NCBI GenBank assembly: GCA_016180645.1
Contig: JACPAV010000003.1
Coordinates: 310,001 to 332,388, forward strand
Direction of reading: 5' to 3'
Source: Nitrospirota bacterium
GTDB lineage: Bacteria > JACPQY01
DNA length: 22,388 nucleotides
The notes under the pieces were generated by a model that had not been told where the DNA came from, ran no database searches, and worked only from the letters and a program-made list of their open reading frames with translations. A program made the translations under genes and the position numbers. Below are positions 5,946-22,388 of the stretch, piece by piece (position 1 is the first letter of the stretch; each line of letters begins with the position of its first letter).

Positions 5946-6710
5946 CTAGAACTTCAGCGTCTGACCCTGCCCCATGATGCTGAGCGTCGGAATCTGAAGA
6001 TCGTTCAATTCCCGCTCCATCTCGGGGAGGTTGGGGGACTTGATGTGGGTGATGAGGTGCTTCACGTCCGACCGGGCCAGTTTCTCCAACTCTTTCCCGG
6101 CCATGGAAGGGGTGAGATGACCGCTGATCCGCGCCAGCTCGGCCATCTTGTTCGGGAATGAAGATTCAAGGATGACGGCTTTCAAGTGTTTCTCCTTGGC
6201 GAGTCCCGTCCAAACGTTGGTCAGCGGGCCCGTGTCGCCTGAGAAGAAGAATGAAGATTTCCCGTTCGAAACCAGAAACCCCACGGCCGCGATGGTGTGA
6301 TTCACCTCGAACGCGGTCACGGTCAGATCGCCGAACTTGGTGGGTTCCTCCACGTGGATGGGCTTCAACATCATGATGGGCTTCTCGATGCTCGGGATGA
6401 TGGTGAAATCGGGCCAGATGGCGTTGTTCAGCAGGTGCGCCTTGAGTTCATGGAGCACTTGCGGAATCGAAACGACCACCAGCGGCTTGGTCCTTCGGCC
6501 GATCAGGTTGTCGGCCAAAAGCGACAGATCCCGAACGTGATCGAGGTGGGGGTGCGAGATGAACACGTAGTCCACGCCCATCTGCTGCTCCAGCGTGAGC
6601 ACGGAGGTCACCGTGCCGGCATCCACCAGCGCGGAGTTGTTCACCAGATAGCCCGTCAGCCGGTAGCCGGGAAGCTCCGAGCCGTAGCAGCCGAGGGCTT
6701 TGAGATCCAT
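5946..6710 (-). CDS. 3',5'-cyclic-nucleotide phosphodiesterase, class II / metallo-beta-lactamase fold
   Basis: Real start is probably ATG 6710 (MDLKALGCYGSELPG). Motifs LVDAG, SHPHLDH (HxHxDH), NNAIWPDF, VNH, FSGDTGP, ESSFPN, SGHLTP and THIK. Directly downstream of the cyclase. Confidence 0.88.
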   Translation of the reverse strand: MDLKALGCYGSELPGYRLTGYLVNNSALVDAGTVTSVLTLEQQMGVDYVFISHPHLDHVRDLSLLADNLIGRRTKPLVVVSIPQVLHELKAHLLNNAIWPDFTIIPSIEKPIMMLKPIHVEEPTKFGDLTVTAFEVNHTIAAVGFLVSNGKSSFFFSGDTGPLTNVWTGLAKEKHLKAVILESSFPNKMAELARISGHLTPSMAGKELEKLARSDVKHLITHIKSPNLPEMERELNDLQIPTLSIMGQGQTLKF

Positions 6711-6721
6711 TCGAGGTTCGC

Positions 6722-9149: not shown

Positions 9150-9932
9150 CTACTCGTGGCACTCCAGGCAGGGTGGCTCTTCCATGTCGATCAGCTCGCC
9201 GTGTTCGGTCTTGTTCGAGTGGCACTGGCGGCAGACCATGCCCTTGGGGAGATGCTCGTCCACCTTGTGGGTCTCCTTGTACTCCAGATGGCAGCCGCCG
9301 CAATCGCTCCGAACGAGATGTTCGTACAAGGGAGGCTTGATCGAATCCTCGGGATGGCAGGTTTCGCACGTTTCTTTGGTCTGCTCGTGGCAGCCGTTGC
9401 CCATGCAGGCGGTCATCTTCGGGCGGTTCGTCGGCTCGGCCTCATGATCGTGCGTGATGGTGTAGTGACAGTCGGGACAGCGCATCTCCTCGAGCTTGAT
9501 GTGGAGCTCGTGGTTCATTTTGATGTGCTTCTCGTTGTGCTCGTATTTGAGTTCTTTCTTGTTCGGGATGTCCTTGTGACAGCGGAGACAGTTGTCGTTC
9601 AGCCGCTCCGTTCGCGAGGCGAAGACCATGTGGTCGTCCGCATCAGCCATCTGCCAGGGAAATTTCGGCAGGTGCATGGCGTGGCACTCGACGCAACGCA
9701 CTTCCGAGTACGGTGGATGGACCTTGGACGTACCGCCGACAAAAGAGGTTTCTCCCGTGGAGTGGCAGCTCAGGCAGTTGTGCGGGCTGCGCGCGTATTT
9801 CGCGAGCCCCCAACCGGAGGTGAGCGCGAAAACGGCTCCCGCCCCCAGGAAGATCGCGAGGTTCCTGATCGTCAGGGGAGGAATGTGGAGCGTCTTCACG
9901 CGACCGATCAGCGATTGGATTCGACGGCCCAT
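9150..9932 (-). CDS. Membrane-anchored multiheme cytochrome c (8 CXXCH + 1 CX4CH), NapC/NirT-like N-terminus plus c3/c7-like C-terminal part
   Basis: Likely start ATG 9932 (MGRRIQS). N-terminal TM, then CLSCH, CVECH, CLRCH, CPDCH, CMGNGCH, CETCH, CGGCH, CRQCH and CLECH. Confidence 0.85.
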   Translation of the reverse strand: MGRRIQSLIGRVKTLHIPPLTIRNLAIFLGAGAVFALTSGWGLAKYARSPHNCLSCHSTGETSFVGGTSKVHPPYSEVRCVECHAMHLPKFPWQMADADDHMVFASRTERLNDNCLRCHKDIPNKKELKYEHNEKHIKMNHELHIKLEEMRCPDCHYTITHDHEAEPTNRPKMTACMGNGCHEQTKETCETCHPEDSIKPPLYEHLVRSDCGGCHLEYKETHKVDEHLPKGMVCRQCHSNKTEHGELIDMEEPPCLECHE

Positions 9933-9937
9933 GGCGC

Positions 9938-12298
9938 TCACTCGAAGAAGAACAGGTATTTTTCCACGAAGCCCGGCTTCGGCCTGGAAGCCACTTTCAG
10001 GACGGATACCACGGTGTCCTGCCAGGCGACGCCCCCTCCGGCGCGGTCGGTTTTGGCCGCCACTAGCGGCTTCACGTGAACTCCATTCCCTTCCTTCTCC
10101 CACCACACCAGCTTCGTTTCGGGGTTCGCGCTCTTGAACGCCTTGGCCCGTGCCACGTGGCCATACCCCCAGTGGCCGCAATTGTCCGATATGGCGATGA
10201 CGCGGGGGTGGATGCCCTGGACCAGGAGGACTTCGCCCCGGACGATGCCCGTCCGGGAAATCACCTCCAGCACGTCGCCGCTCTCCAGACCCAACTCCTC
10301 GCCGGTGGACCGGTTGATGAGGATCGGGTTGCGGTGAACGATCTCGGAGAGCTTGAGCGAGCCCGCGGTGTGGTAATGGGTGTGGACGTTCCACTGGAAG
10401 TTTGTCAGGGCGAACTGGCTCGGTCGCATCTCCGCATACTCCGGCACCGGCTCATAGGTCGGCATGGGATTGAGTCCCATTTTCTCCAGCCGCGCGGAGT
10501 GGATTTCGAATTTTCCTGAGGGCGTGTCGAAGCCGCCTTTCCGATATTTCTGGTAGTCCGGTTTGGCGTCGGGATCTCTCCAGAATCCCTTCTTCACCAG
10601 GTATTCCAGGCCGCCCGCCTTTTCCAATCCGGCGATTCCGGCCACCTGCGCGTAGAGGTAGTCCTCGGGATCGAAGTAGAAATATTTCGTCATGGGGCCA
10701 TCCAGCAGCGTCGCCAACTCGATCAGGATATCCATGACCGGCTTGGACTCGCCCAGCGGTTTGACCACCGGCTGCCGAAGGCTGACGAACGGCACCATTT
10801 CCATGGACGGCGGCGATTCCAGTTCCCATCGTTCGAGGTAGGTGGACGCAGGGAGAACGACGTCGGCCAACGCCGCGGTCTCCGTCATGTGGCTGTCGAT
10901 GGCCACATGGAAGGGGATCTTGATTTCGTTCTTGAAAAGGGCATCCACGGCTTCCGTGTGGGGCGCCTCGTACAGGGGGTTTCCCATGTAGGTGAACCAC
11001 ACGCCGATTTGCGGTTTCTCCATCTCCGCCAGCTTTTCGAAGAGACCATAGGTCGATTCCCGGCCCGTCTGGGAATTAAGGAAGGCGCTCGCTGCGGCGG
11101 GTTTCGGCGGAACGGGCTCGGGATCGCGGAAGGCGTAGCTCCGCGGGAGGCAGAAGCCGCCGAGGGCGTCGATGCGGCCGGTGACCGCGTTGAGGAGCAT
11201 GATGCAACGCTCATTCTGCACGCCGTTGACGTGCTTGCTGACGCCTCCGGAAGAGATCGTGGTGGCGTACCGGCTCCGGGCGAATTCGAGGGCGATGCGG
11301 ACGATGTCCGCCGCTGCGACGCCGCTTTCCTGCTCGGCCCGCTCGGGGGTGTACGGCGCGAGGTGCTTCCGGAGCCGGTCCGGCGCCACGTTGGTCCAGT
11401 TTCTCAGAAAGGCTTCATCGTGGAGGTTCTCCCGCATGATGACGTGGGCCATCGCCAGCGCGATCAATCCGTCCGTGCCGGGGAACGGCGCAAACCATTC
11501 ATCGCTCCGGCCGGCGGTCTGGCTGCATCGCACGTCGAAGCTGACGAGCTTGGCGCCGTAATGCACCTGGGAATGCCGGATCTTCGTCTGCCTTCCTTCG
11601 GTCAGCCGCTGGACGAAACTCGTGCGCAGATAGTGCGCTTCGTACGGATTGGCGCCGAAGTTGAGAATGTACTCGGTGTTGACCACGTCGGACACCTCAA
11701 CAGGCGCTCCCCATGTGGCCTCCTGCGCCAGACGCTTGTTCTGGTTCGTCAGACCCACGTGAACGAGCGCGTTCGGGGAGCCGAAGGCACGGGCAAATCG
11801 TTCGGTGAACTTCTGCGTCGTAATGTCCCGGCTGCTGTACAAGAAAAACTTTTCGGGTGTCTTCGCCTCCCACAGAGCGCGGAGTTTCCCGCCGACCAGT
11901 TTGTGGGCCTCGTCCCAGGAGATCTGTTTCCATTGGCCCTCGCCCCGCTTTCCGGTGCGGACCATCGGATGAAGGATCCGTTCAGGATCGTAGAGGATGT
12001 CTTTGGCCGCGTGACCCTTGGCGCACATGCGGCCGCGCGAGTTGGGGTGATTGGGATTTCCTCCGACCTTGGCCAGCGCTCCGTCCGTCGCATACCCGAT
12101 GATCCCGCACCGCGCATAGCAGTTCAGGCACGTGCTGTGGATGTTCCGGTGCGCGCGGCGCGTCGTCCGCGTGACGCTCCTCCCCCCCATCTGGAGCTCC
12201 ATGGGGAGGGTGGCCTTGGGAAGCAGCGTTCCGGCGGCCGCGATGCCCGCCGCCGCGCCCGTAGTCATGAGGAACTGCCTTCGGTGGAGTTTTCTCAT
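9938..12298 (-). CDS. Mo/W-bisPGD oxidoreductase catalytic subunit, Psr/Ttr/Arr-like group, Tat-exported
   Basis: Start ATG 12298 with Tat signal HRRQFL. FS0 motif CLNCYARC...CAKG. Further motifs YDPERILHPMVRTGKRGEGQWKQISWDEA, PGTDG, ETAALADVVLPASTYLER, TPSGKFE and GHWGYG. Confidence 0.92.
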   Translation of the reverse strand: MRKLHRRQFLMTTGAAAGIAAAGTLLPKATLPMELQMGGRSVTRTTRRAHRNIHSTCLNCYARCGIIGYATDGALAKVGGNPNHPNSRGRMCAKGHAAKDILYDPERILHPMVRTGKRGEGQWKQISWDEAHKLVGGKLRALWEAKTPEKFFLYSSRDITTQKFTERFARAFGSPNALVHVGLTNQNKRLAQEATWGAPVEVSDVVNTEYILNFGANPYEAHYLRTSFVQRLTEGRQTKIRHSQVHYGAKLVSFDVRCSQTAGRSDEWFAPFPGTDGLIALAMAHVIMRENLHDEAFLRNWTNVAPDRLRKHLAPYTPERAEQESGVAAADIVRIALEFARSRYATTISSGGVSKHVNGVQNERCIMLLNAVTGRIDALGGFCLPRSYAFRDPEPVPPKPAAASAFLNSQTGRESTYGLFEKLAEMEKPQIGVWFTYMGNPLYEAPHTEAVDALFKNEIKIPFHVAIDSHMTETAALADVVLPASTYLERWELESPPSMEMVPFVSLRQPVVKPLGESKPVMDILIELATLLDGPMTKYFYFDPEDYLYAQVAGIAGLEKAGGLEYLVKKGFWRDPDAKPDYQKYRKGGFDTPSGKFEIHSARLEKMGLNPMPTYEPVPEYAEMRPSQFALTNFQWNVHTHYHTAGSLKLSEIVHRNPILINRSTGEELGLESGDVLEVISRTGIVRGEVLLVQGIHPRVIAISDNCGHWGYGHVARAKAFKSANPETKLVWWEKEGNGVHVKPLVAAKTDRAGGGVAWQDTVVSVLKVASRPKPGFVEKYLFFFE

Positions 12299-12299
12299 G

Positions 12300-13214
12300 T
12301 CAGTGCAGGGGTATGCTTTGACCGGCATAGACCACCGTGAGTCGCATCGCGTAAATTCCGAGGAGGACGAGAACCGAAGCCACATTCGCGGAGGCGAGCG
12401 AACCCCGAAACGGCTTCACAAAGATCAGAATCAGGGGAATCAGACTCCCAAGGAACACCTCCACGCCCAGGAACAGGAACGTGAACTTCCCGTGGAGGAG
12501 GAGCTGAGCCACGTAGTACTCCTCCGCCTTGGAGGTCAGGAGGACCAGGATGTCGTTGGAAATCAGGAAGAGGTCCACGATGATCACCGCACCGAGGAAT
12601 TTCACCAGATTCAGGATCAGCCCCTTCTCGACCTCCGTTTCCTTGGGATCGCGTTTCTTGGCCGCCCAGCGGTTGTAGATCGAGGCAGCCACAACCATGA
12701 GCGCGAAGCCGGAGACCATGGCGGAGACGAGGAAGAGCGTCGGCATGAGCGCCGTGCTCCACAGGGGCCGGCCTTTTCCAAGGGCGAGAATGAATCCCGT
12801 GTAGCCGTGCACACACACTGCGAGCGGGATGCCAATGATGCCGATGAGCTTGGCCGCCTTCTGCCTCCCCGTGAAGAGCGCCCACGCGTAAAGCGTTGCA
12901 TTGAGTGGATAGGAAGTCAGGAGGAAAGTGCCGTAGGTGATGGGGGACGTCATATGGAGATAGACGAAGAGGTACCAGAACCGCGTCGGCTGCTCGAGAT
13001 CGATGACAAGGAAAAGAGGGGCGATGACGAGGGCCAACGGCGCCATGATGGAGCCGATCTTTGCGAGAGCCTTGTACTCGGTGCGGCCGCCGAGGACGGC
13101 GATAACGGAGATGACGAACGATCCGGCGGAGATGCCCGTGAGGTAGAAGTAGGTGGCGATTTCCTTCCCCAGGGGGATGACGTGCGGGGTGTTGAAAAGC
13201 GTTTGTGCTTCCAC
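12300..13214 (-). CDS. NrfD/PsrC family quinone-interacting membrane subunit
   Basis: Likely GTG start 13214 behind GGAGGAGG. Motifs IATYFYLTGISAGSF, DLEQP.RF, TSPITYG and YTGFIL...RPLW; about 8 hydrophobic segments. Confidence 0.9.
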   Translation of the reverse strand: MEAQTLFNTPHVIPLGKEIATYFYLTGISAGSFVISVIAVLGGRTEYKALAKIGSIMAPLALVIAPLFLVIDLEQPTRFWYLFVYLHMTSPITYGTFLLTSYPLNATLYAWALFTGRQKAAKLIGIIGIPLAVCVHGYTGFILALGKGRPLWSTALMPTLFLVSAMVSGFALMVVAASIYNRWAAKKRDPKETEVEKGLILNLVKFLGAVIIVDLFLISNDILVLLTSKAEEYYVAQLLLHGKFTFLFLGVEVFLGSLIPLILIFVKPFRGSLASANVASVLVLLGIYAMRLTVVYAGQSIPLH

Positions 13215-13215
13215 C

Positions 13216-13923
13216 CTATTCCTCCTCCCAGCCTTTGAGAGGATCGGCGGCGTCCAGATCAAGGCCGATGTAAAACACCCGGGGGTTCGTACCCATTTCC
13301 GGTTTGAGCACGCTGACCGGTTCCGTGGCCAGGATTTGGGAGATCTCGCTGTTTGGATCGTTCATGTCCCCGAAGATCCGGGCTCGACCGATGCACGTTT
13401 CCACACAGGCCGGCACAAGCCCCGCATCCACCCGATGGTCGCAGAACGTGCATTTCTGCACGTATTTCTTGAGGGGATTCACGTATCGCACGTCGTATGG
13501 GCACGAGGCCATGCAGTACTTGCAGCCGATGCACCGGTGCTGGTCGATCATCACGATCCCATCCTCCCGTTGCCAGGTCGCTTCAACGGGGCAGTTGGCC
13601 AGACAGATCGGTTTCTCGCAGTTATTGCAAAGGATGGGGACGAACGAGCGGGAGACATGCGGGTACTTCCCTTTTTCGACGACCTTCACCCATGTGCGGA
13701 ATACGCCTGGCGGGACGTCGTTCTCCTCCTTGCAGGCCACCGTGCAGGACTGGCAGCCGATGCAGCGGCGGAGGTCGATGACCATCGCGTAGCGCTTCCT
13801 GCCTGCCTTTCCCGCGGCCGGACCTTTGGCGCCCTCGTGACCGACCCGGTGGGCGAGCCCTTCGCGGCCCGCAGACGCAGCCGTTCCGGGCAGTCCGCCA
13901 GCCTCTTTCTCCTTCGCAGCCAT
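13216..13923 (-). CDS. 4x[4Fe-4S] electron-transfer subunit (TtrB/PsrB/NrfC family)
   Basis: RYAMVIDLRRCIGCQSCTVAC, CNNCEKPICLANCP, CIGCKYCMASCPY and KCTFC...PACVETC...ARIFGD. Confidence 0.93.
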   Translation of the reverse strand: MAAKEKEAGGLPGTAASAGREGLAHRVGHEGAKGPAAGKAGRKRYAMVIDLRRCIGCQSCTVACKEENDVPPGVFRTWVKVVEKGKYPHVSRSFVPILCNNCEKPICLANCPVEATWQREDGIVMIDQHRCIGCKYCMASCPYDVRYVNPLKKYVQKCTFCDHRVDAGLVPACVETCIGRARIFGDMNDPNSEISQILATEPVSVLKPEMGTNPRVFYIGLDLDAADPLKGWEEE

Positions 13924-13975
13924 ATTGACAGCCCTTCGGGATGTTCCGGGAAACGGTTCCCGGGCCCTTCAGCCG

Positions 13976-14413
13976 CTATTTCTCGTCTTCTTCTTCTTCT
14001 TCCTCGGCTGCGCCGGCGCCCTCTTCCTCGGGCGTGACAGCGACCTTGGTCTTCCGAGCTGCCAGCCACTCGGTGAGGGTCTTCAGCTCTTCGTCCGTGC
14101 CCTTGAATTTCTTCTTGTGGCCGACCTTCTTGGATTTATCGAAATGCGACTCGATCTTCACTTCCTTCTTCAGCCATTTGGTGAAGAACGCGGCGTCTTG
14201 TTCCGCTCCGACGTTGGAGAGATCCGGCCCCTTCTTGGCCTTGCCGGTTTTCTTGCTGATTTTTTTCTCGATGGCTTCCGCCTTGACCAAGTGGCAGTCG
14301 TTACACTTCTTCTCCAGGAAGATGTCTTTTCCTGAAGCGGCGAACGTCGCCGAAGGCAGCGCCGCCGCCAGGAACGGCGCCACGACGAACAGCGAAACAA
14401 GCCTGCGCATCAT
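13976..14413 (-). CDS. Periplasmic monoheme cytochrome c, Lys-rich with acidic tail
   Basis: Signal peptide, GKDIF...CNDCH, GPDLSNVG. AGGAGG RBS. No Met in the mature chain. Confidence 0.85.
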   Translation of the reverse strand: MMRRLVSLFVVAPFLAAALPSATFAASGKDIFLEKKCNDCHLVKAEAIEKKISKKTGKAKKGPDLSNVGAEQDAAFFTKWLKKEVKIESHFDKSKKVGHKKKFKGTDEELKTLTEWLAARKTKVAVTPEEEGAGAAEEEEEEDEK

Positions 14414-14484
14414 CGGGATTCCTCCTTTTCCAAATAGGCGTCCGGTCGGACGACCTCGGTATTTATGGGTGTCTCCACTCAGAT

Positions 14485-14527
14485 CACCTTTCTGCGGGAG
14501 GGTAACAACCGTTCCCGGTGTCGCCCA
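14485..14527 (-). ncRNA. Candidate partial Moco/Tuco RNA motif (3' half only)
   Basis: Minus strand reads GGGCGACACCG-GGAA-CGGUUGUUA-CCCUCCCG-CA-GAAAGGUG: a GNRA hairpin followed by CCUCCCG...GAAAGGUG, as recalled for the 3' part of Moco RNA leaders. It lies upstream of a molybdoenzyme operon. The 5' half was not recognised. Confidence 0.35.
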
Positions 14528-14547
14528 TGACCACGGTCAACACTTGT

Positions 14548-14658
14548 AAGCGTTCAGCCATCAGCCGTCAGCAATCAGCTTCAGGATCCGGAATCAGGGG
14601 ACCGGCCGTCTCTCGTCCTCTTCCTCTTCCTGCGGCCCAAGCGGATGGCCGAGAGCTT
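14548..14658. repeat. Heptamer tandem-repeat element (second copy of the TCAGCNN family)
   Basis: aagcgttcagccatcagccgtcagcaatcagcttcag (14548-14584), with a degenerate opposite arm gcggatggccgagagctt (14641-14658). Confidence 0.65.
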
Positions 14659-14659
14659 A

Positions 14660-14760
14660 GAGCGTCTAACAGAATGCGTAGGGGAGGGTCTTCAGACCCT
14701 CCCGACAAGAGGGAGCATCTGAAGATGCTCCCCTACGAATCGGCATTCTGTTAGAGGCTC
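14660..14760. repeat. MITE-like element containing a GTAG-type REP doublet
   Basis: 18-bp terminal inverted repeats with 1 mismatch (gagcgtctaacagaatgc / gcattctgttagaggctc). They enclose GTAG-gggagggtcttcagaccctccc and gggagcatctgaagatgctccc-CTAC hairpins. A related inverted copy lies at 22225-22388. Confidence 0.8.
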
Positions 14761-14769
14761 CTAGGAAAC

Positions 14770-15627
14770 TCAGTCCTTCGGGTCCTCGAGATACTTCCGT
14801 TTGCGATGGATGACGAAGGCCCCGATCAAGAGGAACACGGTGAAGAATCCGCCTGCGATTTGGCGACGCTTCAGGACATCCTCCTGCTCTCCAATCCGGG
14901 TCGCCAGGATCCGCGCATCTTTCGTGACGGTCTCCGCAATCTCGATGACCCGGTCGAGGTCCAGGATGTGGCTGAGGTGATGGAACACGTTCCGCTGGGC
15001 GAAATGGGCCTGCTGGAGGGATCGCACGTCCCACCCTTCCGACCTCAACACGGCGATCCGATTTTCGAGTTCGACGAGCCGCGCCTCCGCATCGGTCATG
15101 GCCACCTTGATCCGCTTCGAGCGCTCATACTTGTGGCACTCGGAGCAGGTGTCTTCGTTGATCAGATCCAGGTTGGCCTTCTTGATCCTGTGCGCCTCGT
15201 GGCAGGTGATACAGACCGGACGCTTCTCCTTCTTCGTCAGCCAGTGTTTGCTTTTGACGTAGTTCTCCTGGATGGCCACGTGGCATTTGCCGCATACCGC
15301 GGGCACATCGTCGTCCGCCGGCGCGCCGATGAACTCCGACTCCTCCTCATCGTGCGCGTCCTCTTCCTCGGAGGCGGCCGGATTGCCCCCGTGGCAATCG
15401 TTGCACGCAATGGAGTTTTCGTGGTGGATGCTTTCGCGCCACTCCTTGGGCGGAATCGCAAGATCCTCGTTTTCCTCCTCCTGCTCGAGGTGGCATTTGA
15501 CGCACTGGTTTTCGGGCGGAATATCCTCCGCCCACGCGGTCGCAACGAACGCCGCCGGGAGAAGGATCAGCGCCCCCAAGGCCCTTCGGAGCTGAAAGCT
15601 GATCGCTGACGGCCGATCGCTCCTCAT
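14770..15627 (-). CDS. Pentaheme cytochrome c with coiled coil and C-terminal TM anchor (cytochrome c subunit of the Rieske/cyt b complex; CbcX-like)
   Basis: Signal peptide ending AWA. CVKCH, CNDCH, CGKCH, CITCH and CSECH. C-terminal TM followed by RKRK. ATGA overlap with cyt b. Confidence 0.87.
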   Translation of the reverse strand: MRSDRPSAISFQLRRALGALILLPAAFVATAWAEDIPPENQCVKCHLEQEEENEDLAIPPKEWRESIHHENSIACNDCHGGNPAASEEEDAHDEEESEFIGAPADDDVPAVCGKCHVAIQENYVKSKHWLTKKEKRPVCITCHEAHRIKKANLDLINEDTCSECHKYERSKRIKVAMTDAEARLVELENRIAVLRSEGWDVRSLQQAHFAQRNVFHHLSHILDLDRVIEIAETVTKDARILATRIGEQEDVLKRRQIAGGFFTVFLLIGAFVIHRKRKYLEDPKD

Positions 15628-16679
15628 GACAGATGCCCCCAGACCGTCAGGCCGACGAACGAAGCCAGCCCGGCGAAAACGGCAGCGAGGAACAGCGGAC
15701 GCTTCAGCGGCCGCCTTTCCGGATTACGGTCGATAAACGGAAGGAGCAGGATCGCAAGTCCGGCCAGTCCCTGCGCGGCCACTCCCAGGAACTCATTGGG
15801 AATGATTTTGAGCATCTGGTAGTTCGCCAGGAAGTACCATTCCGGCTTGATGTGGGGCGGCGTAAATAGGGGATCGGCCGGCTCCATGGCATCCGGCGGG
15901 AAGCTGATCTGCGGGGTGAAGAAAACGCCGAAGAAGAGCAACGCAAGAAAGAAGTAGACCACGCGGAGGTCTTCCAGCGCGAAATGAGGGAAGAACGGAA
16001 CCTTCTTCACCTGGTCCTTGGGAATGCCCGGCGGGGCGGAAATCCCGGCGCGCCGCATAAAGAAGAGGTGGGCGGCCACGATCATCGCGAAGAGCGGCGG
16101 GAGAACCGAAACGTGGAGCGCGTAGAAACGGCCGAGAGTCATCTGATCGACGCGGTCCCCCCCGCGGATCCATCGGACGATATCGTCGCCGATCACGGGC
16201 ACCGATCCGGCGGAGTTCGTCGCTACTGTCGTCGCCCAGTACGAAAGCTGACTCCACGGCAGGAGGTAGCCCGAGAGGCAGGCCATGAGGCCCAATCCGA
16301 ACAGGACCACGCCGCTGATCCACTGGATCTCGCGCGGTTTCTTGTAGGAGCCCATGATGAGGGTGCTCAGCATGTGGAGCATGAGGACGAGGATGAAGAG
16401 ATTCGCGGCGATCGCGTGCGTTCTCCGGATGAGCCATCCGAACGAGATCTTGCCGGTGATATTCATGACGCTCTCGAACGCGAGCGACGTGTGGGGGATG
16501 TAGTACGCGAGCAGGAGAATCCCGGTGGCGAACTGAATGCCCAGCACGGTGAGGAGGACGGCCCCCATGGAGTACCAGACGCTGAGGTTCGCCGGAACCA
16601 TGTAGCCCGTGAGATGAGTCTCGATGAGTTCCCGGTATTGAACGCGCTCTTCAAGCCAGTCGAGGATCTTTTTCACCAT
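15624..16679 (-). CDS. Cytochrome b/b6 (unsplit) of a Rieske/cyt b complex
   Basis: Start ATG 16679 (MVKKILDWLEER). GWLIRRTH...LH, GSYKKPREIQW.SG, GYLLPWSQLSYWA, RFYALH...AH and the Qo motif KPEWYF. Confidence 0.93.
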   Translation of the reverse strand: MVKKILDWLEERVQYRELIETHLTGYMVPANLSVWYSMGAVLLTVLGIQFATGILLLAYYIPHTSLAFESVMNITGKISFGWLIRRTHAIAANLFILVLMLHMLSTLIMGSYKKPREIQWISGVVLFGLGLMACLSGYLLPWSQLSYWATTVATNSAGSVPVIGDDIVRWIRGGDRVDQMTLGRFYALHVSVLPPLFAMIVAAHLFFMRRAGISAPPGIPKDQVKKVPFFPHFALEDLRVVYFFLALLFFGVFFTPQISFPPDAMEPADPLFTPPHIKPEWYFLANYQMLKIIPNEFLGVAAQGLAGLAILLLPFIDRNPERRPLKRPLFLAAVFAGLASFVGLTVWGHLS

Positions 16680-16683
16680 GACG

Positions 16684-17115
16684 TCACGCCTCGAACAACC
16701 GGACCGAGTCTTCCACGACTTCCACGCGGTAGCGTGTGAGGCCGCGGGGCGGCGGTCCGGAGATTCGGTTTCCGTTGCTGTCAAACTTTGCGGCGTGACA
16801 AGGACACAGGATCTTGCCTTCGGCCTTCTGCCAGCGGACGATGCAGCCGAGGTGGGGGCAGACGGCGCTGAAGCCCCTCCACTCGCCTCCGTGATGGACG
16901 ACGAGCGTCGGTTCGCCGAAGGCCAGTCCGGTTCGCGCCCCTTCCCGCACAACCTCCTCCGCCCGGATGGGTTCACCGTCCAGGTTGGTGAGGGTGTTGT
17001 CACCCTTCGCCGAGGGTTTGGGAAAGAAGTACGCGGCCACCGGAGCGACGAATGCAAGACCCGTGATCCAGCCCACGGCTTGAGTCAAGGTGTCGAAAAA
17101 CCCTCTTCGGGTCAT
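16684..17115 (-). CDS. Rieske [2Fe-2S] protein, Tat-anchored
   Basis: MTRRGFF Tat motif. CPHLGC and CPCH boxes. GPPPRGL. Confidence 0.93.
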   Translation of the reverse strand: MTRRGFFDTLTQAVGWITGLAFVAPVAAYFFPKPSAKGDNTLTNLDGEPIRAEEVVREGARTGLAFGEPTLVVHHGGEWRGFSAVCPHLGCIVRWQKAEGKILCPCHAAKFDSNGNRISGPPPRGLTRYRVEVVEDSVRLFEA

Positions 17116-17124
17116 ATTTCCTCC

Positions 17125-18354
17125 TTACCTGGGGGTTCGACGGCGGAAGGCCATCCAGCCCACAAACAGCATCAGCACAGCCGCCGCAGCCATCAAGATG
17201 GTTTTCCCCGGGAGCTGCTTTTTCGCCGGCACATGGAACTTGTCCCGCGCCATGGCGAATTGCATCGCGGAATGGTTCCCGGGGAGCTGCGGATGGAATT
17301 CGTAGGTCAGGACGGCCTCCACGGAGAAGGGGCCGGGCGGCACGGTTTCATTGAACTGAAAGGTCTCACGGCGGGTTTCCTGCGGGCGGACGCGATTGTC
17401 GCTGATCACCTTCACGGAATTGAGAAACATATCCGTGATGCTTTCGTTTGGAATTTCGGCGCCGGAACGATCCGCCAGAATTCGCCGATACACCAGATCC
17501 CGCGCGCCCAGAAGCCGGCCTTTCTCATCCACCAAGCGGGCGGTCAGGACCAACTTGCGCGCCGGGAGGCCCGTCGGTATGGCGTGTCCGGATTCGCTGT
17601 TGGTCACATAGACGATCGCTTCCAGTCCCTGACCTTTTCTTTCAGCGAGCACGGAGATTTTCGCGGCATTTCCGACCCGGATCTGGGAGTGCCCTCCCAT
17701 CACGGAATGCGAAGTGACGGTCTTGGTGCTGGGCGCCACATCGCGGTCGACGATGGTGAACCGGATGTCCTCCGGCATGTGGCAATTCTGGCATGCCGTG
17801 CCCGATCCGGGGTACGGGCCGGTGCTCCACTCTTCATAGGTATTCATGACGTGGAGGCCGTGGGCATTGATCACTTCGTGACAGCCGCCGCAAAACTCAC
17901 CCTTCTTGTGCAGAGGGGAAAAGGCGTTCTTGTGACCTTTCTCCGTAAGCTCGCTCGGCTGGAATGGACCCCACTTCGTATCTCCCGGCTGGACCTTGTA
18001 CCGTTGGAGGCCGGGCCCCATCGGCAGGAGATCCGTGACAGAGTGGCAGAAATCGCAGGTAACTCCCTCGCGTGCCACCGGATCCGAAAGTTTGTCGTCC
18101 CCGGTGATTTGGGTGATCGGGGCGTGGCAGGAGAGGCAGTAGCGTCGATCCTCCGGCCGGGTAACCGTGTCGAAGCTCGCGCGGAAGACCGGATCTTCGA
18201 GCGAGAGGGCGTGCATGGAGTCCTTCCATTCGGAATAGATCCCCGAATGGCATTCGCCGCATTTCTTGGCGCTCTCGAAGCGGTTGGCAGCCCACGCAGA
18301 CGACGAGGCCATTTCAGAAAGAAGCAGAGCGACAGGGAGGAAGGCGATTCTCAC
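17125..18354 (-). CDS. Pentaheme cytochrome c (c554-like N-terminal region) with beta-rich domain and C-terminal TM anchor
   Basis: GTG start and signal peptide. CGECH..IY.EW..S.H, CLSCH, GVTCDFCH, CGGCH and CQNCH. GHAIPTG motif. Terminal hydrophobic helix followed by RRR. Confidence 0.87.
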   Translation of the reverse strand: MRIAFLPVALLLSEMASSSAWAANRFESAKKCGECHSGIYSEWKDSMHALSLEDPVFRASFDTVTRPEDRRYCLSCHAPITQITGDDKLSDPVAREGVTCDFCHSVTDLLPMGPGLQRYKVQPGDTKWGPFQPSELTEKGHKNAFSPLHKKGEFCGGCHEVINAHGLHVMNTYEEWSTGPYPGSGTACQNCHMPEDIRFTIVDRDVAPSTKTVTSHSVMGGHSQIRVGNAAKISVLAERKGQGLEAIVYVTNSESGHAIPTGLPARKLVLTARLVDEKGRLLGARDLVYRRILADRSGAEIPNESITDMFLNSVKVISDNRVRPQETRRETFQFNETVPPGPFSVEAVLTYEFHPQLPGNHSAMQFAMARDKFHVPAKKQLPGKTILMAAAAVLMLFVGWMAFRRRTPR

Positions 18355-18366
18355 GCGACGAGCGGC

Positions 18367-18834
18367 TTAGTTGTTCGCGGCCCCTTGCTGCACCCAGGCT
18401 TGCACGATGGCGGCTTTGTCGGCGCCAAGGGCCGCTCCGCCGATGTGACCGTCGCCTCCCGTACCTTTCTTGATGAGCTTGCTGTCCGCCGGAGAATCGA
18501 CATTCACGAGGGCTTTGATCCCGGCGTAGTCGTTCGCAGCCACTCCGGTTACCTTGTATGAGCCGATGCCGGCCGCATGGCAATTGCAACTCGCTTGGAG
18601 CACCGGAAGAACGTCCTTGGAAAAGCTGTACTCCGTTCCGCCTGCTCCACCGCCCGCGCCGCCGCCGGTGTCGCCGGTCCCACCGCCTCCACCGCCGGAT
18701 ACGGCCCCGGCCTCTTCAGCGCGGCTGAAGGGGTCGCCGCACGAAGAGAGGGTGAGGAGTGAGGCGCAAGCCGTGAGCAGCAGGAAAGAAAACAGGATCG
18801 ATCGAAGACCTGGAAAATTGCCGCGCATAGCCAC
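18367..18834 (-). CDS. Lipoprotein cytochrome c-like protein with contracted CNCH motif
   Basis: Lipobox LSSC and Gly-rich linker. YSFSKDVLPVLQASCNCH...S.LI.K..G...H.GG...W...GA. Paralog of 20390-20821. Confidence 0.75.
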   Translation of the reverse strand: MAMRGNFPGLRSILFSFLLLTACASLLTLSSCGDPFSRAEEAGAVSGGGGGGTGDTGGGAGGGAGGTEYSFSKDVLPVLQASCNCHAAGIGSYKVTGVAANDYAGIKALVNVDSPADSKLIKKGTGGDGHIGGAALGADKAAIVQAWVQQGAANN

Positions 18835-18840
18835 CTCCGA

Positions 18841-19980
18841 CTAGAATTCGATGACCGCCGCGAGGCGGACCAGATCGTTGGGTTGCTCGTTCGCCGCTTC
18901 GAGGTTGACGAAATACTCGATTCCCGTCGACAGGATCTTGTAGTCCCACCACAGGCCGACGTTGTGGCTGACCATGTCCTTCTCGTCTTTGCGGTCCTTG
19001 TCGAAGTAGAACCCTTCGATGTTGTCGAGCGAGACGAAGCCGGTGCGATATCGACAGCGCAGATCCCATGGGAGCTTGTAGTCCACCTGGAGGTAATCGC
19101 CGAAGTGATAGTAGGAGGTGATGGTGGAGTCACCTTCGACTCGCTCACTGCCCCGCACATACGCCTTGATGAAACCCGCCTTGAGGGAGAGGTTGCTAAG
19201 CGGTCCCACGGGGAGGAATCCGTATGCCGCCGCGGCGTCCAAGCCCACCAGGAACAGGCCGCTGTCGCTGAAGTACTGGTTCCAATAGAACGATCCCCAC
19301 ACGCTGTATTTCCCGGCGCCCAGGCGCAACCGGTCTCCCGCCCCCGCTTGCCCGGAATTTTCCGTCGTCTTGCTGATATCCACCATCTCGTTCAGTTTCC
19401 CCTCGGGACCCGGCACGACGTAGAACTCGTTGTCGATTCGGAGGCCGGGCCTGTCGGTGATGGGGTACAGGAAAGACCCGCCGTAGGTGGTCCAAAGGAA
19501 GGGGACCAGTTTCTGATCGAACCCCGTGAGCCCGCCGTAGGCGCGGTGAAAGAGCGGATCGGCGCCGAACGGCATGAAGATCTTTCCGAACTTCAGCAGC
19601 CGGTTCTTTCCCAGTTTGACGCCCACTTCGAAGAACTTAAAATCGACGATTTCCGCGGAAAAAGAGAATGGCTCGTCCTTCTTCCTCCGGCTCAGGAAAA
19701 CGAAATGATGGTAATTCTTGAAGTAATCTTTGCCCTCTTCGGGGTTGCCCGTGAACTTCTCCTTCTCATAGGTGAGATCGAAGCGACCGTTGATCATGAA
19801 TCCGGAGAGCTGAATTCCCGGCGCCGGCTTCCCGCTTTCGGATTCCGATTCCTCGGCCGCCAGCACCCACATGGGCATCAGGACCACCATGAGCGCCGTC
19901 GCCAGGAACAATCCGAGCCAAACCAGGATTGAGCTGACCGCTGAATGCTGAGCGCTGACCGCTCCGCTCTCACTTTGCAT
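18841..19980 (-). CDS. Predicted outer-membrane beta-barrel (porin-like) protein
   Basis: Likely start ATG 19980, overlapping the upstream stop. Signal peptide and aromatic-rich alternating strands (INGRFDLTYE, LKFGKIFMPFG, DYLQVDYKL). C-terminal LVRLAAVIEF ends in Phe. No heme motifs. Confidence 0.72.
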   Translation of the reverse strand: MQSESGAVSAQHSAVSSILVWLGLFLATALMVVLMPMWVLAAEESESESGKPAPGIQLSGFMINGRFDLTYEKEKFTGNPEEGKDYFKNYHHFVFLSRRKKDEPFSFSAEIVDFKFFEVGVKLGKNRLLKFGKIFMPFGADPLFHRAYGGLTGFDQKLVPFLWTTYGGSFLYPITDRPGLRIDNEFYVVPGPEGKLNEMVDISKTTENSGQAGAGDRLRLGAGKYSVWGSFYWNQYFSDSGLFLVGLDAAAAYGFLPVGPLSNLSLKAGFIKAYVRGSERVEGDSTITSYYHFGDYLQVDYKLPWDLRCRYRTGFVSLDNIEGFYFDKDRKDEKDMVSHNVGLWWDYKILSTGIEYFVNLEAANEQPNDLVRLAAVIEF

Positions 19981-20320
19981 GGCACACCTCGCAATCGACC
20001 TCTTCATCCTCCGGGTAGAAGGCGACATCACCGTTGTGGCACGCGCCGCAGTACTTGCCGGCGTCTATGTCTTCATGCGTCATGCCCACCTTCTTCTGCA
20101 TCGAGAAGAGTGAGGCATGGCAAGCATAGCACTTGAACTCCTCCTGGTGCTTCCAGTGAGGAAACTTGGCGACCTCTTCGTCGGCTTCCTCGACGCGCGT
20201 CATCGTGATCCACGCGGGATTGGCCACGAGCAACTTCCCGCCCCCAAGAACGGCGCCCGCGACGATCCCAACGGACATCAGGAATAAAATCTTTCTTCGG
20301 TCATGGTCGGATTTCATCAT
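19970..20320 (-). CDS. c7-type triheme cytochrome c
   Basis: Start ATG 20320 or 20317 behind GGAGG. FPHWKH....CYACH..LF......GKYCGACHNG..AF......CEVCH is the c(7)-type triheme domain pattern. Confidence 0.88.
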   Translation of the reverse strand: MMKSDHDRRKILFLMSVGIVAGAVLGGGKLLVANPAWITMTRVEEADEEVAKFPHWKHQEEFKCYACHASLFSMQKKVGMTHEDIDAGKYCGACHNGDVAFYPEDEEVDCEVCHAK

Positions 20321-20389
20321 GCCTCCAAACTTAACCAAACGCGCTTCTTGCGATATGACGGAGGTCAATTTTAATCCCGGCGCCTCTCA

Positions 20390-20821
20390 TCAGTTCCCGC
20401 ACGCTCCCAGGGAGATCCACGCGCTTACGATCCGATATTCACCGGAAGATTCGGCCAGGATTGCGCCGCCTCCGTGGGACGTCTGACCGGAAGCCTTCAT
20501 GAGAAGGTAGCTCTCCGTCGGCTTCCCGGGAGTGACGAGTCCTTTTACCATGGAGTAGTCGCCCGTTGCATCCGTGGCCAAAACAAATGCAGTCGCCCCC
20601 CCCGGCAGGCCCGGAGCGTGGCAGCCGGCGCACCTCGACCGCAGCAGGGGGTACACTTCATTCGAGAAATTGCTCTCCTCCTGGCACGTCGGAGGGGGCG
20701 AGTCCTCCTCTGTGCTTCCTCGATCGGAGAGTCCGCAGCCTGGAATCGTGAGCAGTGAGCCGCAAGTCGCGAGCCGAAAGACTGCGAAAAGGAAAGTGCG
20801 CCTCGCGGTGTCGATTCCCAT
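20390..20821 (-). CDS. Monoheme lipoprotein cytochrome c
   Basis: RRTFL N-terminus and lipobox-like IPGC. FSNEVYPLLRSRCAGCH...ESYLLMKASG..SHGGG...WI..GA resembles planctomycete-type cytochrome c domains. Confidence 0.78.
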   Translation of the reverse strand: MGIDTARRTFLFAVFRLATCGSLLTIPGCGLSDRGSTEEDSPPPTCQEESNFSNEVYPLLRSRCAGCHAPGLPGGATAFVLATDATGDYSMVKGLVTPGKPTESYLLMKASGQTSHGGGAILAESSGEYRIVSAWISLGACGN

Positions 20822-20980: not shown

Positions 20981-21931
20981 ATGAGGATTCCGAAGGGATG
21001 CCGCGTATGGGCGCCGGCCATGCTCATGTTTGCCTGCGCGGGGGGCAAGGACGGCATAGCGCCGGATAGCTCCAATCGACCGGGTGTTGATTCCGCGTCT
21101 TCCGCTTCGTCCTTGGCTTTCGCGCGCTTGGTTGCGCACTCCTCCGAAGCCACAGTAGGCGAAGAATACCGAACGCGAAACGTATCCGGAATGGTGGAAA
21201 TCTTCAGCGGCGACAAACTCCGCAGCGACATCCTCGGAGGGGTTGCGCAGGCCAGTGGGCGCTCGGAAATCCCGCTGGTCACCGTGCATGTGGCCGGCAC
21301 TTTGCCGGCGGAGTTTGCGGATGCGCTGTCGGCGGGGCTTGGAGGGCAACCACGGGATTATCAATACGGCCTCACTCTCGTTTTTCCAGCCATTCCGTTC
21401 GACTGGGCGGAGGTTCGCGATCACCCCGCCCTTCAGCCGCTATTTCCCTATCCCCCGTACGGGGTTACCCGGGTTGAAGTGGCCCGGGTGGAGCCGGATT
21501 CGGAGCGTCCGATGTTTTCCGGGTCGGTCTCCCTTTCGTTCAATGAGCTGATCCTCGATGCGGAGCTCGTGGCGCCCCTGCTCCCTCCTTGCGGTCCGCA
21601 ACCAGCGGCCAATGGCTACCCCGGAGGCTTCCCGATCTACTGCGAACCGTACGAAGGGCGGCTTTGGGGATTGCGTGGCCGGCCATGCGGGAGCAGTGAG
21701 GACTGCACGCTGGGCCCCCCGGCACCCTGCTCAGGTTGCAGTCAGCCCTTCAGCCGGACCTTCCTCGACGAAGCGTGGGCCCTCTACGCCCAAACCGCTT
21801 TCTGCCCCCATATATGTCCTATGTTGATTGCGCCATGTCCCGAAAATCCAACGGCTGTTTGCGAGGAAGGTTACTGTCGCATCAAAGCGGAGAGAGAGAG
21901 CGGGTTGCCGCAAGTGGCCGTGTCGAAATAA
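20981..21931 (+). CDS. Hypothetical lipoprotein with Cys-rich C-terminal domain
   Basis: 316-aa ORF with lipobox-like MFAC. C-terminal C....DC...C..C...C...C...C...C..G.C pattern with no CXXCH. Divergent from the cytochrome cluster. Confidence 0.6.
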   Translation: MRIPKGCRVWAPAMLMFACAGGKDGIAPDSSNRPGVDSASSASSLAFARLVAHSSEATVGEEYRTRNVSGMVEIFSGDKLRSDILGGVAQASGRSEIPLVTVHVAGTLPAEFADALSAGLGGQPRDYQYGLTLVFPAIPFDWAEVRDHPALQPLFPYPPYGVTRVEVARVEPDSERPMFSGSVSLSFNELILDAELVAPLLPPCGPQPAANGYPGGFPIYCEPYEGRLWGLRGRPCGSSEDCTLGPPAPCSGCSQPFSRTFLDEAWALYAQTAFCPHICPMLIAPCPENPTAVCEEGYCRIKAERESGLPQVAVSK

Positions 21932-22224: not shown

Positions 22225-22388
22225 GAGCCTCTGACGGAATGCCGATTCGTAGGGGAGCATCTTCAGATGCTCCCTCTTGTCCTTGCCTCTTCGTAGGGGA
22301 GCATCTTCAGATGCTCCCTCTTGTCGGGAGGGTCTGAAGACCCTCCCCTACTTGCTCCCTCTTGTCGGGAGGGTCTGAAGACCCTCCC
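22225..22388. repeat. Expanded GTAG-type REP cluster (BIME-like), truncated by the window end
   Basis: Reverse complement of the 14660-14760 element with internal duplications: two gtaggggagcatcttcagatgctccctcttgtc units and two gggagggtctgaagaccctccc units. Confidence 0.8.

Follow-up and report, generated by a model that had tools for sequence, protein, structure and literature searches.

A thirteen-gene redox cluster in a Nitrospirota genome

We analysed a stretch of 22,388 nucleotides (nt) of DNA (G000:C3:310001-332388; hereafter the window) from a Nitrospirota bacterium whose genome assembly measures 4.7 Mb in 65 contigs and is 97% complete. Thirteen open reading frames (ORFs), g1 to g13, all on the minus strand, fill positions 9150-20821 (Table 1). 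We treat them as three modules: module A (g1-g4), centred on an outer-membrane barrel; module B (g5-g9, of which g9 is soluble), with Rieske and cytochrome b subunits; and module C (g10-g13), with Fe-S, NrfD-type, molybdenum (Mo)-enzyme-like, and NrfH-like subunits. A preliminary description of this DNA had reported 13 co-oriented genes with the same list of parts, which our searches bore out: the Rieske, cytochrome b, Fe-S, NrfD, and Mo subunits were matched in Pfam or NCBIfam, and the barrel was identified by its fold. Its tally of seven c-type cytochromes with 25 heme motifs (23 CXXCH, one CX4CH, and one CXCH) was reproduced exactly by a recount, in which a script found one CXXCH in g1, three in g2, five each in g5 and g8, one in g9, and eight in g13. 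The unusual motifs are CNCH in g4 and CMGNGCH in g13.

Table 1. Features of the cluster, with positions counted from the first nucleotide of the window
Feature	Position	Likely start	Strand	Description
g1	20390..20821		-	Small lipoprotein monoheme cytochrome, CAGCH and HGGG motifs, paralog of g4
g2	19970..20368	20320	-	c7-type triheme cytochrome with signal peptide
g3	18841..20031	20007 or 19980	-	16-18-strand OprO/P-like outer-membrane beta-barrel
g4	18367..18834		-	Lipoprotein with Gly-rich tether and cytochrome domain, CNCH in place of CXXCH
g5	17125..18354		-	Pentaheme cytochrome, C-terminal membrane helix, ExtKL-like C-terminal domain
g6	16684..17115		-	Rieske [2Fe-2S] subunit, b6f-like, N-terminal anchor
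g7	15624..16679		-	Cytochrome b, b6 fused to subunit IV, 7 predicted helices
g8	14770..15627		-	Pentaheme cytochrome, signal peptide and C-terminal membrane helix
Palindromic dispersed repeat, ~100 nt	14660..14760		.	Inside the g8/g9 gap
g9	13976..14413		-	Soluble monoheme class I cytochrome c, acidic tail; PF00034, 25.3 bits
g10	13216..13923		-	Four-cluster Fe-S subunit, PsrB/TtrB/DsrO-like
g11	12300..13262		-	NrfD/PsrC-type membrane subunit, short form (320 aa)
g12	9938..12298	12298	-	Tat (twin-arginine translocation)-exported PsrA-like subunit of Mo/W-bis(pyranopterin guanine dinucleotide) (bisPGD) type, FS0 motif, Thr at Mo-ligand position
g13	9150..9932		-	Membrane-anchored NrfH-like nonaheme cytochrome, eight CXXCH and one CX4CH

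The phylum of the window was represented in our genome search by only two genomes, the source genome and G001. The G001 locus and the fetched locus L002 gave identical figures and were counted as one. In L002, 12 genes (g2-g13) stand in the same order as in the window, with 49-83% amino acid (aa) identity; an extra g9-like gene lies between g4 and g5, and a separate g1 is absent. The L002 orthologs keep the odd heme motifs as CACH in g4 and CMGSGCH in g13, so sequencing error was ruled out as their origin. The CXCH form of g4 is confined to the two genomes of the phylum (L002:8869-9300), and all relatives outside the phylum have CXXCH. Four DNA sequencing runs, all belonging to one groundwater study that is possibly the source of the assembly, carry the locus; no RNA runs were listed.

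An OprO/P-like barrel recurs with small cytochromes

The g3 protein matched no Pfam or NCBIfam family, even at an E-value of 10. Its AlphaFold2 model, built with 30 sequences, is a beta-barrel of 17-18 strands (mean predicted local distance difference test [pLDDT] score 82.2, predicted template modelling [pTM] score 0.77). The best Foldseek matches were OprO and OprP (E 4e-10), followed by general porins, and the nearest named Atlas clusters carry Porin_O_P. The loop PFGADPLFH is highly conserved, was modelled with low confidence, and resembles the L3 constriction of general porins; the conserved charged residues are 14 acidic, 4 His, and 5 basic. Among the companions of the barrel, g2 scored above the cut-offs of both PF14522 (47.9 bits) and TIGR04257 (63.2 bits). 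The g1 protein aligns with the g4 family, has no Pfam match and no ortholog of its own in L002, and gave weak NCBIfam matches to the RoxC N-terminus, cytochrome c551, and the LIC11213 lipoprotein.

A word-indexed search of 5.8 billion clustered proteins returned 32 members of the g3 family, and a full hidden Markov model (HMM) search of 1.84 billion representatives returned 295 at E ≤ 0.001, each standing for a cluster at 50% identity; 194 remained at E ≤ 1e-10 and 97 at E ≤ 1e-30. Matches were found in 10 of 401 sampled genomes, eight of them strong. Examination of seven loci from six unrelated genomes showed that a c7 triheme gene of the g2 type precedes the barrel gene in five and that a g1/g4-type gene follows it in four. 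In 19 metagenome loci, several of which look like one population, the g2-type gene was upstream in 15 of the 16 that could be assessed and the g1/g4-type gene downstream in all 16 assessable.

Furthermore, 30 of the 150 best g3-family representatives carry g4-type cytochrome domains fused N-terminally to the barrel, and 26 of these have two such domains. Comparison of the g4 family with residues 248-342 of one fusion, P0161, by hhalign gave a probability of 98.3% (E 1.7e-14). Since the cytochrome precedes the barrel in the fused proteins and the barrel precedes g4 in the split genes, the fusions are not read-through artefacts. They argue that g4-type cytochrome domains would work physically with the barrel, by analogy with the Cyc2/Cyc572 cytochrome-porins. 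The proteins P0157-P0227 (550-840 aa) carry two HGGG monoheme domains, Ala/Pro-rich linkers, and a C-terminal OprO/P-like barrel, and have no family annotation. A complex prediction of g3 with heme and g4 scored 0.01, short of the mark of 0.32, and was used neither way.

The surroundings of the g2-g3-g4 triad differ among genomes. The triad adjoins an OmcA/MtrC-family decaheme (449 bits, cut-off 209) and a NapC-like tetraheme in L019, an MtrC/MtrF-like 10-heme protein in L040, NapC and a 10-heme Ig-domain protein in L055/L056, and NapC-type proteins with a multiheme-cytochrome b561 fusion in L021. In L020 (6931-13082), from a low-GC lineage, it lies immediately behind the same-strand genes for a Mo enzyme of 945 aa, an Fe-S subunit, and a NarJ/type II chaperone, and a divergent Qrc-like operon (QrcA/B/C-like, below cut-offs) is also present. 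Mo and Fe-S genes lie near the triad in L053, an EB_dh-family protein is its neighbour in L023, a rhodanese gene comes after it in L054, and only housekeeping genes surround it in L018 and L022. Genes resembling g9 stand beside the barrel triad in L002 (the extra copy), L019, L021, and L053.

The preliminary description had proposed a porin-cytochrome module. The idea of a unit is upheld by the recurrence of the triad, the natural fusions, and the OmcA/MtrC- and NapC-like neighbours elsewhere; the barrel itself, however, is a 16-18-strand OprO/P-like porin and not a sheath of the Mtr/Mto/Pcc type. MtrCAB, MtoAB, PioAB, and Pcc share with module A the logic of a barrel, a periplasmic cytochrome, and a lipoprotein cytochrome, and the L019 triad, beside an OmcA/MtrC-family decaheme and a NapC/CymA-like protein, extends this likeness. 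MtrB, PioB, and MtoB have 26 strands according to the part of a published account available to us (PMC10654088), whereas the g3 model has 17-18 and its best matches are the 16-strand OprO/OprP, so that the large-barrel sheath is lacking. The MtrA/DmsE model (TIGR03508, cut-off 192 bits) was reached by none of g8 (38.1 bits), g13 (24.8), and g5 (24); g5 scored 27.7 bits against PF22113, below 30, and no OmcA/MtrC-family surface decaheme was found in the window.

In architecture, module A resembles Cyc2/Cyc572 in combining a small c-type cytochrome domain with a porin of ~16-17 strands, as far as the same part of that account describes these proteins (PMC10654088). The fused g3 relatives are the closer match, with cytochrome domains N-terminal to the barrel on one polypeptide. 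In contrast to Cyc2, the window has the split form, with g1, g4, and g3 encoded separately; two cytochrome domains and a length of 550-840 aa characterise the fused relatives; and a c7 triheme gene is a near-constant companion of the g3 family.

A PsrA-like subunit without the usual metal ligand

Module C was assigned by matches of g10 to PF13247 (Fer4_11; 91.2 bits), with 256 bits against the TtrB model (cut-off 416), and of g11 to PF03916 (150.4 bits; 7 helices at a strict threshold). The g12 protein matched the Pfam families Molybdopterin (135 bits), Molybdop_Fe4S4 (42.5 bits), and Molydop_binding (33.4 bits) and was closest to Thermus PsrA (2VPW chain A; E 1.9e-61 over residues 80-722); g13 starts like NrfH and has a helix at its N-terminus. 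In HMMER alignments, the Mo-ligand Cys of PsrA (2VPW chain A) and of ArrA (6CZ7 chain A) faces a Thr in g12. We aligned the first 330 residues of the 120 best g12 homologs (44-100% identity) and found this column to be variable, with Gly in 58, Ser in 23, Glu in 12, Tyr in five, Thr in four, and Cys in two; the Mo subunit had earlier been called atypical, and these data agree. By contrast with the ligand column, each of the four FS0 cysteines is retained by 117-119 of the 120; for the Asn and the Lys of a pair lying two residues downstream of that column, the figures are 116 and 102, respectively.

The source labels of the homologs include Acidobacteriota, Nitrospinae, Armatimonadota, Binatia, Nitrospirota, Chloroflexi, Brocadiia, and others, and relatives of g12 at E ≤ 1e-100 were present in 19 of the 401 sampled genomes. 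Seven of the nine best places outside G000 and G001 were fetched. The genes g10, g11, and g12 are adjacent and in the same order in all seven, an NrfH-like multiheme gene lies downstream in each of the six that could be assessed, and extra multihemes with 7 to 16 hemes adjoin module C in most of them. A TorD-like chaperone gene stands beside the Mo gene in L026.

Two groups of named complexes bear comparison with module C. Like Thermus thermophilus PsrABC (2VPW) and the Psr/Phs/Arr enzymes, it has FS0, a Tat signal, a four-cluster Fe-S partner, and a short NrfD/PsrC subunit; unlike Psr and Phs, it has Thr at the position of the cysteine ligand (Cys in only two of the 120 homologs), and its genes run in the order B-C-A and then an NrfH-like multiheme. 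The candidates PhsA, TtrA, ArrA, and QrcB were each rejected for g12, which missed every equivalog cut-off (339.9 bits for PhsA, cut-off 694). Qrc and alternative complex III (ACIII), cytochrome c:quinone oxidoreductases according to the accessible part of a comparative study (PMC6303296), resemble module C in joining a membrane-anchored multiheme, a Mo-enzyme-like subunit that appears to lack the customary active site, an Fe-S subunit, and a subunit of the NrfD type, as that part presents them. They differ in that g12 keeps FS0, that a TorD-like chaperone accompanies its relative in L026, and that g11 is a short form with ~8 helices and not the ten-helix NrfD; in the same part, the short form is linked to standard Mo/W enzymes (PMC6303296). 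Scores for the Qrc models were below their cut-offs (QrcB 171.5 against 440 bits, QrcD 29.2 against 570).

Set against the description available there (PMC6303296), module C takes an intermediate position, with true Psr-type enzymes on one side and the cofactor-less Qrc/ACIII complexes on the other. Judged from sequence, two roles appear about equally likely. A g12 that would be a metal-bearing enzyme without a protein ligand is favoured by the conserved FS0, the chaperone, and the short NrfD. A module C that would act as a cytochrome:quinone oxidoreductase is favoured by the variability of the ligand column and the constancy of the multiheme partners.

A Rieske/cytochrome b complex flanked by pentaheme cytochromes

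Module B combines a Rieske subunit with a cytochrome b that has both N- and C-terminal domains, as in bc and b6f complexes. The g6 protein scored 46.5 bits against PF00355 (cut-off 20.3) and 82-84 bits, below cut-off, against the PetC models; g7 exceeded the cut-offs of Cytochrome_B (PF00033, 185.9 bits) and Cytochrom_B_C (PF00032, 76.6 bits). The monoheme cytochrome c1/f of such complexes is missing; in its place, C-terminally anchored pentahemes, g5 and g8, are encoded on either side of Rieske and cytochrome b. The g5 protein carries a signal peptide and a membrane helix predicted at residues 381-399, in addition to its five hemes. A scan of genome contigs with g5 gave three loci, of which L003 and L004 carry distant g5 relatives.

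A search with NF040969 identified g7 as the single cytochrome b match in the genome. Two heme-copper oxidases are encoded on other contigs, and one of them adjoins a Mo-enzyme-like gene group on contig C28 (~18.5-56 kb), which comprises five to six paralogous genes for proteins of ~1000 aa. On contig C60, 16-, 11-, and 9-heme frames adjoin another Mo gene; in total, the genome has ~13 Mo-enzyme-type genes and 23 frames with at least three CXXCH.

The linkage of modules B and C was also found elsewhere. Both L025 and L027 have the order 16-heme, 11-heme, Rieske, b6, subunit IV, 9-heme, Fe-S, NrfD, Mo, and 6-heme, so the junction of the two modules recurs outside the phylum. Whether the blocks are adjacent beyond this genome had been put forward as a test of the preliminary description, and the answer is divided: Rieske/cytochrome b followed by Fe-S/NrfD/Mo does recur, but the barrel module was found beside Rieske/cytochrome b, and joined to modules B and C, only in this phylum and in none of the seven genome loci and 19 metagenome loci from elsewhere. 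The longest ORF at L025:15183-16997 encodes a response-regulator receiver domain together with an NrfH-like 11-heme cytochrome, a fusion that may come from a mis-called start.

A further parallel is the Caldithrix abyssi Nap cluster, in which Rieske and cytochrome b genes likewise lie within a periplasmic Mo-enzyme cluster; quinol oxidation feeding multiheme cytochromes was proposed for them (PMC5317091, consulted as an extract). The extract describes canonical NapA, NapGH, and NapM, and no NrfD, NrfH, or outer-membrane module, in contrast to the window (PMC5317091).

A candidate electron chain across the envelope

We propose, as the best-supported reading, that the cluster encodes one envelope-spanning electron chain, leading from the outer membrane to the quinone pool and composed of the three modules, and we regard the chances for and against this proposal as evenly balanced. 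Each module also occurs alone elsewhere. The parts with their folds and motifs, the recurrence of modules A and C, the fusions in module A, and the link of module C to Rieske/cytochrome b in other lineages are established; the joint action of the modules, their contacting partners, and the type of substrate we infer as follows. Module A would be a split cytochrome-porin, in which the barrel g3, with the lipoprotein cytochromes g4 and g1 and the periplasmic c7 triheme g2, would carry electrons, or else an ion that is redox-active, through the outer membrane. The small periplasmic cytochromes g2 and g9 would link module A to the multiheme subunits of modules B and C. In module B, the pentahemes g5 and g8 would replace cytochrome c1/f, and the complex would translocate protons while coupling quinol/quinone to the periplasmic hemes. 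Module C, a putative Psr-type Fe-S/NrfD complex with a ligand-less Mo-bisPGD-like subunit and an NrfH-like nonaheme, would provide a second quinone-coupled site; of the two sites, one module would reduce quinone and the other would oxidise quinol.

The packing of the genes on one strand and the conservation of the g2-g13 order in the sister genome support a single system. The chain is further favoured by the recurrence and fusions of module A, by its electron-transfer neighbours in other lineages, by the single cytochrome b match in a genome with two oxidases, by the recurrence of module C and its position behind Rieske/cytochrome b in L025 and L027, by the g9-like cytochromes beside the triad elsewhere, and by the ext and Caldithrix precedents. 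Measured from likely start codons, the genes overlap or stand a few nt apart at the junctions g4/g5, g5/g6, g7/g8, and g12/g13, with the g8 start overlapping the g7 stop by 4 nt. The genes had been described as overlapping or nearly abutting; this holds for all junctions, which overlap or measure at most ~70 nt, except for the g8/g9 gap of 356 nt (14414-14769). The gap folds far better than its shuffles (z-score -6), an effect caused by the palindrome of ~100 nt (Table 1). A blastn search found well over 100 near-identical or partial copies of this repeat across the genome, many at contig ends and some in tandem, and it is also present at 22225-22388, the end of the window. It looks like a repetitive extragenic palindromic/miniature inverted-repeat transposable element (REP/MITE-like) and is probably an assembly breaker. 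The repeat is absent from the L002 gap, the sequence of which is not conserved with that of the window; because of this absence and its dispersal in the genome, we consider the palindrome an insertion and not a conserved regulatory element. The gap contains no ORF of note, and Rfam gave no match in the window.

The repeat in the g8/g9 gap also fits a rather unlikely alternative, in which the locus is a respiratory gene island whose modules act independently and are adjacent through co-regulation or by chance in a small phylum. Module B would then be a housekeeping complex III feeding the two oxidases via g8 and g9, module C a separate Psr-like enzyme with a soluble substrate of its own, and module A an independent outer-membrane unit. 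Such an island would account for the one cytochrome b detected in a genome with two oxidases elsewhere, for the occurrence of every module alone in other genomes, for the housekeeping genes around module A in L018 and L022, and for the presence of ~13 Mo-enzyme genes and several other multiheme clusters in this genome. It is harder to reconcile with the overlaps and few-nt gaps at the four junctions named above, with a g2-g13 order kept at 49-83% identity in a sister genus despite diverged intergenic sequence, with module C following Rieske/cytochrome b in L025 and L027, or with the g9-type cytochromes that accompany module A elsewhere, although g9 of the window stands on the module C side of the gap.

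Relationship to the Geobacter ext cluster

The closest named precedent for the cluster is extHIJKLMNOPQS of Geobacter sulfurreducens, as far as the portion of its description at hand goes (PMC5877670). Like the window, ext contains co-oriented genes for a porin (phosphate-porin-like), a small protein after the porin, the 5-heme cytochrome ExtKL, other c-type cytochromes, a Rieske protein, and cytochrome b. The preliminary description had not recognised the combination as a named system; a cluster of porin, cytochromes, and Rieske/cytochrome b is nevertheless already represented by ext. The g5 protein matched the ExtKL model NF040886 with an E-value of 2.9e-18 (65.7 bits, cut-off 250) and g7 matched ExtP with 1.9e-55 (187.9 bits, cut-off 290); ExtS (18.8 against 100 bits) and ExtM (16.9 against 800) also remained below cut-off. 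The g3 barrel is of the OprO/P type, and that portion likens ExtI weakly to phosphate-selective porins (PMC5877670). The window differs from ext in that it has no 12-heme or 10-heme ExtM/ExtN, that its cytochrome b is fused to subunit IV, and that it adds the c7 triheme, the monoheme lipoproteins, and the entire Fe-S/NrfD/Mo/NrfH module; no rhodanese domain (ExtH) was found by Pfam among the 13 proteins, and the ext paper makes no mention of a molybdenum enzyme (PMC5877670).

[quoted passage not shown] A second alternative, which we consider distinctly improbable, is an Ext-like periplasmic reduction system whose substrate would be an oxyanion or metal ion in solution. The barrel would then be a substrate channel, no electron would cross the outer membrane via protein, and the small cytochromes, the Rieske/cytochrome b pentahemes, and the Mo-like enzyme would reduce or oxidise the substrate in the periplasm. 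The best structural matches of g3 are indeed ion-selective porins, and ExtI is likewise described there as weakly similar to phosphate-selective porins (PMC5877670). The ExtKL-like g5 and ExtP-like g7 point the same way, as do the rhodanese gene after the triad in L054, which recalls ExtH, and the co-orientation of the triad with a Mo enzyme, an Fe-S subunit, and a NarJ-like chaperone in L020, with Mo/Fe-S genes also near it in L053. The conserved charges of the barrel, mostly acidic or His, would fit a cation such as Fe2+ or Mn2+. However, cytochrome domains covalently attached to the barrel in 30 of 150 representatives are hard to square with a mere channel, large decahemes flank the triad in three contexts (L019, L040, and L055/L056), every Ext cut-off was missed, and the window has no equivalent of rhodanese, ExtM, or ExtN.

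Only one of the 401 sampled genomes, G087, scored above the cut-off of the ExtKL model. Its two ExtKL-family genes (L038:2717-4057 and L039:2658-3827) each contain one in-frame TGA, a probable selenocysteine codon, and lie outside any Ext-type cluster, with an ammonium transporter and, for one of the two, an IS630-family transposase as neighbours. The barrel profile compared with a 448-aa protein neighbouring a G087 ExtKL gene gave an hhalign probability of 0.06%.

Returning to the proposed electron chain, several observations weigh against it. Bacterial lipoproteins face the periplasm by default, and the surface position of g1 and g4 is only presumed. The modelled 16-18-strand barrel, with its L3-like PFGADP loop, is too narrow for an MtrB-style multiheme sheath and may only pass solutes; the window has no gene for a large multiheme cytochrome of the cell surface, and heme binding by the CXCH motif of g4 may be absent. 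Outside the phylum, module A was beside Rieske/cytochrome b in none of the seven genome loci and none of the 19 metagenome loci, of which only eight are at least 13 kb long. Being kin, the two genomes of the phylum amount to a single observation, and L025 and L027 are likewise related (63% identity in the Mo subunit, 77% in cytochrome b), so that their linkage may reflect a single joining event. As the sole bc complex, module B may merely serve the oxidases. The g8/g9 gap with its mobile palindromic repeat could divide two transcripts; promoter- and terminator-like sites are no commoner than in shuffled sequence and speak neither for nor against a single operon.

The evidence on the direction of flow in the chain is mixed. 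Three features lean towards electron uptake from Fe(II)-like donors, namely the Cyc2-like architecture, the two oxidases, and the origin in groundwater, and the OmcA/MtrC and NapC neighbours elsewhere, together with the Ext analogy, lean towards export to high-potential acceptors or periplasmic reduction. The direction had been held to be undecidable from sequence, and our analysis came to the same outcome.

Genes flanking the cluster

Directly downstream of the cluster, on the minus strand at 5946-8959, lie genes for a CHASE2-domain adenylate/guanylate cyclase (745 aa) and a metallo-beta-lactamase protein resembling class II cAMP phosphodiesterases. This pair has a promoter-like site of its own at 8997-8969 and may be a local cyclic-nucleotide signalling pair. 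Upstream, divergent from g1 on the plus strand, a Cys-rich ORF of 316 aa at 20981-21931 belongs to no Pfam family.

Implications

A literature search, with most subscription journals outside it, returned no description of a triad of c7 cytochrome, OprO/P-like barrel, and monoheme lipoprotein, and none of a cluster of Rieske/cytochrome b with Fe-S/NrfD/ligand-less Mo/NrfH genes. To our knowledge, outer-membrane electron conduits come from few families only, namely Mtr/Mto/Pio, Pcc, Cyc2, and Uet. The g3 family, which has no Pfam or NCBIfam model and occurs in split and fused forms, is a candidate for a further one, and it could mark extracellular redox metabolism in metagenomes from groundwater, peat, and sediment. 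The widespread ligand-less PsrA-like subfamily represents an uncharacterised branch of Mo/W-bisPGD proteins; it stands between true reductases and the cofactor-less Qrc/ACIII subunits and therefore bears on the evolution of those complexes. In addition, the cluster offers a concrete proposal for a bc-type complex coupled to multiheme cytochromes in place of cytochrome c1.

We tentatively suggest, with more doubt than confidence, that the g2-g3-g4 triad and its fused relatives may form an undescribed family of minimal outer-membrane conduits, made of an OprO/P-like barrel, HGGG monohemes, and a c7 triheme, and that in this phylum the conduit may be hard-wired to the sole Rieske/cytochrome b complex and to a ligand-less Mo-bisPGD/NrfD/NrfH complex. 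If true, this would be a new kind of envelope-spanning respiratory assembly, serving to take up or export electrons extracellularly, for example in Fe(II)/Mn(II) oxidation or the reduction of high-potential metal oxides.

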